Shown one piece after another: positions 1-840 of a DNA stretch of 840 nt. The stretch is from Escherichia coli. Its GTDB lineage: Bacteria; Pseudomonadota; Gammaproteobacteria; Enterobacterales; Enterobacteriaceae. Below the pieces are notes generated by a model, which did no database searches, had not been told where the DNA came from, and saw only the letters and a program-made list of their open reading frames with translations. The stretch lies in the NCBI RefSeq assembly GCF_003334335.1, contig NZ_QOWQ01000147.1. One strand, given 5' to 3'. The position numbers were made by a program, and so were the translations under genes. How positions within the stretch are numbered: the first letter of the stretch is position 1; each line of letters begins with the position of its first letter.

Positions 1-471
1 CAGAAAGGGCTTATCGCATGGTTTGAAAGCGGGGATGTCAGGGCCTATAAAATCCGGTTCCCGAATGGTACGGTGGATGTGTTCAGTGGCTGGGTCAGCA
101 GTATCGGTAAGGCCGTGACGGCGAAGGAAGTGATCACCAGAACGGTGAAAGTTACCAATGTGGGACGCCCGTCGATGGCTGAAAATCTCACTAAAATTAC
201 GCCGGTTTCCGGTGTGACCATTAAACCGGAAACCCTGACCCTAGAAAAGGGGAAGGCAGGCACACTTACTGTGGCTGTGTTGCCGGATAATGCGTCTGAT
301 CCTTCATTAAGGGTGTCGACCGTGCATCGTGCGGTGGCCACAGCCACGTTGAAGGAGAACACAGTGACGGTAAACGCACTTGAGAAAGGAACAACGTCGG
401 TCGTGGTCATGAGTGATAACGGTAATTTTGTTGCTCTGGCGACAGTAACCGTTAATGTCCCTGCCGCGTAA
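1..471 (+). CDS. V: Phage major tail (tube) protein, gpV-like, 5'-partial: C-terminal part of the tube domain followed by an Ig-like (Big_2-type) domain
   Basis: Seen in sequence: frame 1 is open from position 1 (no stop before the ATG at 73), so the 73..471 ORF in the track is only the in-window part of a longer gene that starts upstream. Translation from position 1 reads [61 protein letters not shown]..., which I recognise from memory as closely matching the corresponding region of phage lambda major tail protein V. The C-terminal ~110 aa (...[13 protein letters not shown]...[33 protein letters not shown]) has the alternating hydrophobic/Thr-Val-rich beta-strand pattern of a Big_2 Ig-like domain. 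TAA stop at 469..471. No database search was run. Confidence 0.9.
142..468 (+). other. C-terminal Ig-like (Big_2-type) domain of the major tail protein; boundaries approximate
   Basis: Inference from sequence composition and pattern: beta-strand-like T/V/A-rich segments, a conserved-looking 'NxGxxxV/ATVTV' C-terminal strand, and position at the C-terminus of a gpV-like protein, where lambda V is known to carry an Ig-like domain. Domain boundaries were not computed with an HMM. Confidence 0.6.
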
Positions 472-480
472 CGGGTGTTT

Positions 481-485
481 AGGAG
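481..485 (+). promoter_or_regulatory. Shine-Dalgarno / ribosome-binding site for the downstream chaperone gene
   Basis: Seen in sequence: AGGAG at 481..485, 7 nt upstream of the ATG at 493..495, which is canonical spacing; it lies in the 21-nt V-G intergenic spacer. Confidence 0.7.
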
Positions 486-492
486 AACACGC

Positions 493-840
493 ATGTTTCT
501 TAAAACAGAACAATTTGAATATAACGGTGTGTCTGTCACGCTTTCGGAGCTGTCTGCGCTGCAGCGTATCGAGCATCTTGCCCTGCTGAAACGGCGGGCA
601 GAAGAGGCTGAAGCCAGCGGCAACCTGCAGGTGAGTGTGGAAGATCTTGTCAGAACCGGCGCGTTTCTGGTGGCGATGTCCCTGTGGCATAACCATCCGG
701 AGAAAGTGCAGCTGCTGTCAATGAATGAGGCCGTGATGCAGATCGAACAGGATGTGCTGACGACCTGGCCGGCTGATGCCATTGCCCGGGCGGAAGAGGT
801 GGTGTTACGTCTGTCCGGGATGAGCGGGGCTGTTCATGCG
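493..840 (+). CDS. G: Phage tail assembly chaperone, gpG-like, 3'-partial (continues beyond the window end)
   Basis: Seen in sequence: ATG at 493 preceded by an SD motif; frame 1 is open through position 840 (116 codons, no stop). Translation MFLKTEQFEYNGVSVTLSELSALQRIEHLALLKRRAEEAEASGNLQVSVEDLVRTGAFLVAMSLWHNHPEKVQLLSMNEAVMQIEQDVLTTWPADAIARAEEVVLRLSGM... matches, from memory, the lambda tail assembly chaperone G along nearly its whole in-window length (lambda G begins MFLKTESFEHNGVTVTLSELSALQRIEHLAL...). The position immediately downstream of the major tail protein gene is the conserved lambdoid gene order V-G-(G-T)-H. Confidence 0.92.
   Translation, partial: MFLKTEQFEYNGVSVTLSELSALQRIEHLALLKRRAEEAEASGNLQVSVEDLVRTGAFLVAMSLWHNHPEKVQLLSMNEAVMQIEQDVLTTWPADAIARAEEVVLRLSGMSGAVHA

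Follow-up and report, generated by a model that had tools for sequence, protein, structure and literature searches.

In phage lambda, the tail assembly chaperone is made as two products, gpG and a gpGT fusion, and the second arises when about 4% of ribosomes slip at the heptamer G_GGA_AAG, giving a gpG:gpGT ratio of about 30:1 (PMC5009743, PMC3296357, PMC7618472), as described by Levin, Hendrix and Casjens in 1993 and by Xu, Hendrix and Duda in 2004, 2013 and 2014 (cited in PMC5009743). This ratio is needed for tail assembly (PMC5009743, PMC3296357), in which G binds the tape-measure protein H and T recruits the tail-tube protein V, after which both dissociate and are absent from virions (PMC5009743, PMC3296357, PMC7618472). 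The DNA analysed here, an 840-nt stretch from Escherichia coli (the window), ends inside a homolog of lambda G, short of the 3' end of the gene, and thus raises the question of whether a lambda-type slip site lies just beyond its edge, and whether T is reached by frameshifting there or is a gene of its own, as database records have it.

The window and its extension

We find that the window is 100% identical to positions 34888-35727 of PV340545.1, the genome of Escherichia phage PhiR5_1, a relative of lambda. It is one of the PhiR phages, a set of temperate, infectious lambda relatives that serves as a working panel (bioRxiv 10.1101/2025.11.03.685801). Several E. coli chromosomes carry prophages that are 99.9% identical to the window, and a match to all or part of it is present in 3,709 E. 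coli genome records. Sequence beyond the window was taken from PV340545.1 (locus L001; window coordinate = L001 coordinate minus 3000), and the presence of the slip site, which lies outside the window, rests on this database extension. The corresponding E. coli EC2 prophage differs from L001 by one base within the window (position 249) and by none from there to L001 4455. The features of the region are as follows, with positions beyond 840 given as window equivalents.

1-471, plus strand: 3' end of the gene for the major tail tube protein V, last 156 codons including the C-terminal Ig-like domain, TAA stop at 469-471; V is annotated in PV340545.1 and RefSeq.
481-485, plus strand: Shine-Dalgarno sequence AGGAG of G, 7 nt before the ATG, by direct reading.
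493-840, plus strand: tail assembly chaperone gene G, codons 1-116 of 143, running off the 3' edge; from the open reading frame, TIGR01674 and PF06894.
841-924, plus strand: last 27 codons of G, TGA stop at 922-924; from the PV340545.1 extension.
900-906 (L001 3900-3906), plus strand: slippery heptamer G_GGA_AAG, putative -1 frameshift site; from the PV340545.1 extension.
906-1364, plus strand: T frame (-1 relative to G), 152 codons and stop; from the PV340545.1 extension, TIGR01715 and PF06223.
951-953, plus strand: ATG given as the T start in GenBank and RefSeq, read here as an internal Met codon of G-T.
914-984, plus strand: candidate two-helix RNA structure, with helix 1 at 914-921/977-984 and helix 2 at 940-955/960-975; from the PV340545.1 extension.

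The gene order is V-G-T-H in both PV340545.1 and NZ_CP058571.1. The V part of the window matches the major tail protein family PHROG 41 (E 1.7e-55) as well as Ig-domain PHROGs. Its C-terminal Ig-like domain (window 180-470) diverges from lambda far more than the flanks do, and lambda-type phages align over only 57% of the window, in two pieces; as judged from these alignments, the divergence is consistent with mosaic exchange of a decoration domain. The Shine-Dalgarno sequence of G forms an anti-SD duplex of -7.3 kcal/mol with a 6-nt spacer, and is flanked in the V-G spacer by a short inverted repeat, GUGUU...AACAC (window 474-491). The hairpin that this repeat could form is no more stable than shuffled sequences (z 0.05) and has no counterpart in lambda, and the repeat is probably due to chance.

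At the far end of the region, the PhiR5_1 H gene (L001 4345-6840) is annotated as two coding sequences, one of 777 aa and a second of 79 aa starting at 6678. Against the gene of the EC2 prophage, to which it is otherwise 97.6% identical, it has 51 nt inserted near codon 38 and one gap of 1 nt that truncates the open reading frame; either an error of sequencing or a true division of the C-terminal region may account for this.

A lambda-type slip site 60 nt beyond the window

The first-pass annotation, made from the window by itself, had assigned about 116 codons of a lambda G homolog to its 3' part, out of an expected length of about 140, and had placed the slip site within roughly 100 nt past the edge. 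Each of these expectations is borne out by the extended sequence. The frame that begins with ATG at 493 is open to 840, which is 116 codons, and belongs to the G family (NCBIfam equivalog TIGR01674; 161.5 bits, cutoff 74.45); the complete G is 143 aa long, with its stop at L001 3922-3924, 84 nt beyond the window edge. GGGAAAG is absent from both strands of the window, as had been stated, and occurs a single time in 6.8 kb, at L001 3900-3906, 60 nt past the edge and at a position homologous to that of lambda. We find the heptamer in the register G_GGA_AAG, with its first G as the third base of a G-frame codon (phase 2), and 15 nt separate its end from the G stop, so that the forecast of a heptamer shortly before the stop holds; both the register and the spacing are identical to lambda. 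A search for other in-register X_XXY_YYZ heptamers in G found none, and CCCGGGC at 785-791, considered as a slip heptamer, was rejected as out of register.

After the slip, the -1 frame is open for 152 codons, compared with the 140 or more that had been anticipated, and ends at L001 4364, 20 nt inside the tape-measure gene H (start 4345). A random frame would stay open for 152 codons with a chance of approximately (61/64)^152, or about 7e-4. Upstream of the slip the T frame is closed by a TGA at 5 codons, whereas the corresponding stretch in lambda is open for 15. The -1 frame encodes the lambda T family (NCBIfam equivalog TIGR01715, 203.9 bits, cutoff 77.35), and the predicted G-T fusion of 290 aa contains the Pfam domains Phage_TAC_2 (PF06894, residues 1-121, E 7.8e-48) and Phage_tail_T (PF06223, residues 167-245, E 1.1e-12). 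PHROG 32165, a profile of 290 positions, is matched end to end, with G covering 1-141 and T covering 140-290, which indicates that this profile models the fused product. Identity to the lambda counterparts is 65% for G and 73% for T; no sequence relative of G-T was found in the PDB.

The C-terminal tail of G before the slip site (L001 3841-3899) comprises about 20 residues, is acidic and is almost unalignable between clades, with 53 of 59 columns variable, while the last few G residues (S/T-A-G/E-K) and the heptamer are fixed. From these alignments, sequence appears to be unconstrained in the linker that would join the G and T domains, with its acidic character kept.

The slip site is conserved across relatives

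In a panel of 14 loci, the stop of every G is preceded, at a distance of 15 nt, by a slip site in the correct register, in the form of GGGAAAG, AAAAAAG or GGAAAAG. The heptamer is likewise present in 80 of 80 of the best viral-contig relatives, which were ranked by T protein or T alignment and are 87-100% identical, making them good for a census and poor for covariation; one of them, L025, has a Gly-to-Glu change in the anchor motif. Sampling was widened with a spread-ranked tblastn search and a degenerate DNA pattern specified by amino acids only, in which the residues E-x-G-R-P-D-W-R-A-M-L were fixed and all synonymous codons allowed. This motif-anchored set comprises 242 loci with 58 distinct junctions, and one of the three heptamers lies exactly 48 nt upstream of the motif in all 242. 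When all fetched loci are pooled, the slip site is found at the homologous position in 132 of 132.

Distant relatives, with 30-40% identity in T, keep an in-register A-rich slip site, each followed by a -1 open reading frame of more than 110 codons. The site is GGAAAAG, 3 nt before the G stop, in mEp460, cdtI and Fels-1, and C_CCA_AAA in Vibrio phage HY01. A G stop 3 nt rather than 15 nt after the heptamer is seen in these four phages, in the Klebsiella phage Kp4865-4 and in L169; the overlap of the G and T frames is minimal in such cases, and the heptamer keeps its distance from the T domain in all but HY01, where it lies 3 nt further upstream.

T is probably read as part of a G-T fusion

Both PV340545.1 and NZ_CP058571.1 list a separate 137-aa T coding sequence (3951-4364) starting from the ATG at window-equivalent 951, a codon shared by all lambda-like and Stx-like relatives; if T were indeed an independent gene translated from there, no frameshift would be called for. 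The first-pass annotation had itself named a T gene standing alone, with a start and a ribosome-binding site of its own, as evidence against its proposal, and T is annotated as just such a gene, but the ATG fails when its Shine-Dalgarno pairing and its conservation are inspected directly. With a spacer of 2 nt, its anti-SD pairing amounts to -2.3 kcal/mol, as compared with -7.3 kcal/mol for G and -10.8 kcal/mol for H. Among eight starts in the neighbourhood it ranks last; 74% of positions taken arbitrarily from the locus pair more strongly, and its value falls short of their average. The ATG would also sit within a predicted stem. There is no ATG, GTG or TTG in the T frame between the upstream stop and L001 3951, and no promoter-like or terminator-like sites were found from V to H. 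The aligned codon is TTC or TTT (Phe) in mEp213, Flotzy, LLS, Phi06_2987S, phi80, HK225, mEp237 and others; in the first four, relatives of the GGAAAAG type, it is TTC. The phi80, N15 and mEp213-like relatives that carry the Phe codon still have the same T domain.

Without a frameshift, the stretch between the G stop and the T ATG would be intergenic. We find instead that relatives conserve, at the protein level, the 15 T-frame codons from the slip site to the ATG (VFDGELNFALRLARE), and that past the G stop the T frame alone is free of stops in 12 of 12 sequences, with stops in the other two frames in 8 and 9 of the 12. Pairwise nucleotide identity averages 0.42-0.51 over the variable tail of G and climbs to 0.79-0.92 once the slip site is reached, the TIGR01715 profile starts 11 residues upstream of the ATG, and PHROG 32165 also extends upstream of it. 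In lambda, the T sequence is reported only within gpGT (PMC5009743). Translation of T from its own ATG is therefore highly improbable, and the separate T gene is, on these sequence comparisons, an annotation artefact. In the panel, only the hand-curated records of phi80, LLS and HK630 show the fusion, either as a joined G-T product or through an annotated slip site; a stand-alone T is annotated in PhiR12_5, Stx2_12E129, mEp213, Flotzy, Fels-1, cdtI and others as well.

A fusion of the same composition could also arise if RNA polymerase rather than the ribosome slipped on the A run, through transcriptional realignment. The run is longer in some relatives (AAAAAAG in Stx phages), but the shift site here has three consecutive A's only (GGGAAAG), the same as in lambda, in place of a long homopolymer A/T run, and because of this we regard transcriptional slippage as unlikely, to the point of near-dismissal. 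Polymerase slippage is known on homopolymer runs far longer than three A's. All three heptamer variants, moreover, retain a tRNA re-pairing logic that ends in A_AAG. Trans-frame products are known to arise by transcriptional slippage as well (PMC5009743), whereas the rate in lambda depends on modification of U34 of tRNA-Lys, which is a ribosomal signature (PMC3296357).

With the heptamer, its register and spacing, the open -1 frame, both protein families, the V-G-T-H synteny and the conservation of the site established here, and with no independent T start, we put the probability that -1 ribosomal frameshifting at G_GGA_AAG yields a G-T fusion in the PhiR5_1-type phage at roughly 93%. By this mechanism, most ribosomes would pass the heptamer and stop 15 nt further on to give gpG (143 aa), while a few per cent, by analogy with lambda, would slip back by one base, with tRNA-Gly re-pairing from GGA to GGG and tRNA-Lys from AAG to AAA; the slipped ribosomes would then read the -1 frame for 152 codons to give the 290-aa fusion. 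As in lambda, the G part would be expected to bind the tape-measure protein H and the T part to recruit the tail-tube protein V. That the shift takes place, how efficient it is and what the proteins do are points that we infer from lambda; the heptamer by itself is probably sufficient for the shift.

A candidate RNA structure downstream of the heptamer

The lambda G-T site is the classic example of a frameshift without a stimulator. A reading contrary to this view, which keeps the shift ribosomal, has its rate set jointly by the heptamer and a conserved RNA structure downstream, and we consider it possible though rather unlikely. Two helices are predicted here. Helix 1 (914-921/977-984) would begin 7 nt past the heptamer, with its 5' arm adjoining the G stop, and helix 2 (940-955/960-975), an inner GC-rich hairpin containing UGGCGCG/CGCGCCA, would enclose the mis-annotated ATG. 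The 7-nt spacer falls within the 5-9 nt typical of -1 frameshift stimulators (PMC5009743). The 84 nt downstream of the heptamer fold better than dinucleotide shuffles, with z = -2.55 here and single-sequence values of -3.50 in lambda, -3.47 in Stx1, -3.58 in mEp213, -5.01 in Phi06_2987S, -4.07 in Kp4865-4 and -4.22 in L169. Across 24 distinct sequences, 94.2% of cells are paired and five pairs have changed on both sides, which none of 500 shuffles reach; of 58 distinct junctions, 51 keep the structure intact. At third positions, synonymous entropy is 1.06 where the base is unpaired and 0.48 where it is paired (p = 0.005), and a standard pair survives in 76 of the 95 synonymous variants that fall on paired positions; a change of GCC to GCU at column 84, for example, is coupled to one of G to A at column 16.

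These statistics have to be read against the protein-coding role of the region, which encodes the most conserved part of T, against the phylogenetic non-independence of the sequences, and against the fact that the structure was derived from the same sequences on which it was tested, with an inflated slid-partner control. The synonymous contrast inside the structured span falls short of significance (p = 0.078), and CTG and GCG, the codons that do not vary, are also among those that E. coli favours. The predicted structure is kept in lambda, Stx, phi80 and N15-type clades and is absent in at least three clades: it is lost in seven junctions of VLTRS-type clades (z +0.44, -0.55), where LAREFGRPDWRAML is encoded with other codons, and absent in mEp460/cdtI (z -0.17) and Fels-1 (z -1.37), all of which retain the same slip site and T domain. 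No Rfam family matches the downstream structure, and none was found over V-G-T, where the only match was a sub-threshold chance hit to a lncRNA. The literature examined does not report such an element for lambda G-T, tests of the lambda downstream sequence being represented there by a review's summary.

The evidence for a two-helix structure at this site is thus suggestive at the level of a folding model, and the structure, if formed, may or may not modulate the shift rate. It is a tentative and somewhat doubtful proposition that lambda, phi80, N15 and Stx-type sites share a bipartite structure, composed of a closing helix and a hairpin that buries the T 'start', and that this tunes the G:G-T ratio.

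Comparison with known frameshift systems

The system closest to that of PhiR5_1, which is known here from its sequence, is lambda gpG/gpGT. The two share the heptamer, the gene order and the overlap of the end of the T frame with the start of H, and both halves of the PhiR5_1 product pass the NCBIfam equivalog cutoffs; they differ in that G is 3 and T is 8 residues longer in PhiR5_1, and in that the acidic G tails before the slip are unrelated in sequence (DTDSTEVAKNNALTDDDFSAGK against VNNAPEQTEDAGPAEPVSAGK). The phi80, N15, HK225 and mEp213 type (G_GAA_AAG) and the Stx phages (A_AAA_AAG) have homologous G and T domains, a slip column that is likewise 48 nt upstream of E-x-G-R-P-D-W and the same predicted downstream structure, and differ in the first heptamer triplet. 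GGAAAAG of the phi80/mEp213 type is non-canonical with respect to XXXYYYZ and relies mainly on slippage at A_AAG; the phi80/N15/mEp213 type also has a Phe where lambda-like phages carry the Met mis-annotated as the T start.

More remote are E. coli dnaX and the cassettes of IS911 and the IS3 family, which combine A_AAA_AAG with a stem-loop and, in some cases, an upstream SD-like element. These are, like the G-T site, bacterial -1 frameshift signals with a heptamer ending in A_AAG, and the arrangement of heptamer, 7-nt spacer and helix would be alike if the predicted structure were functional; in contrast to dnaX and IS911, the downstream structure here is only predicted and is not universal. 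No SD-like element of the dnaX kind, which would lie some 6-17 nt upstream of the heptamer, was found; the 19 nt before the heptamer read ctgatgatgatttttctgc and have no GGAGG- or AGGAG-like run. The efficiency expected here is low, given the approximately 4% of lambda, whereas frameshifting in dnaX is far more efficient than that.

Implications

The prediction of a lambda-type G-T frameshift site past the edge of the window is confirmed, and the window lies beside a classical lambda G-T -1 programmed frameshift, the biology of which is already known; that the G:G-T ratio is essential to lambda tail assembly is likewise established. The value of the main result lies in annotation correction only. 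GenBank PV340545.1 and RefSeq/PGAP should list G alongside a joined G-T product that carries a ribosomal_slippage qualifier, and in many of the E. coli prophages matching the window, among the 3,709 records noted above, T is probably mis-annotated in the same way. Were the downstream structure to prove a true determinant of the shift rate, it would overturn the textbook view of the tail-chaperone frameshift as one that works without a stimulatory signal, and would offer a handle, of modest importance, for tuning the stoichiometry of tail assembly.
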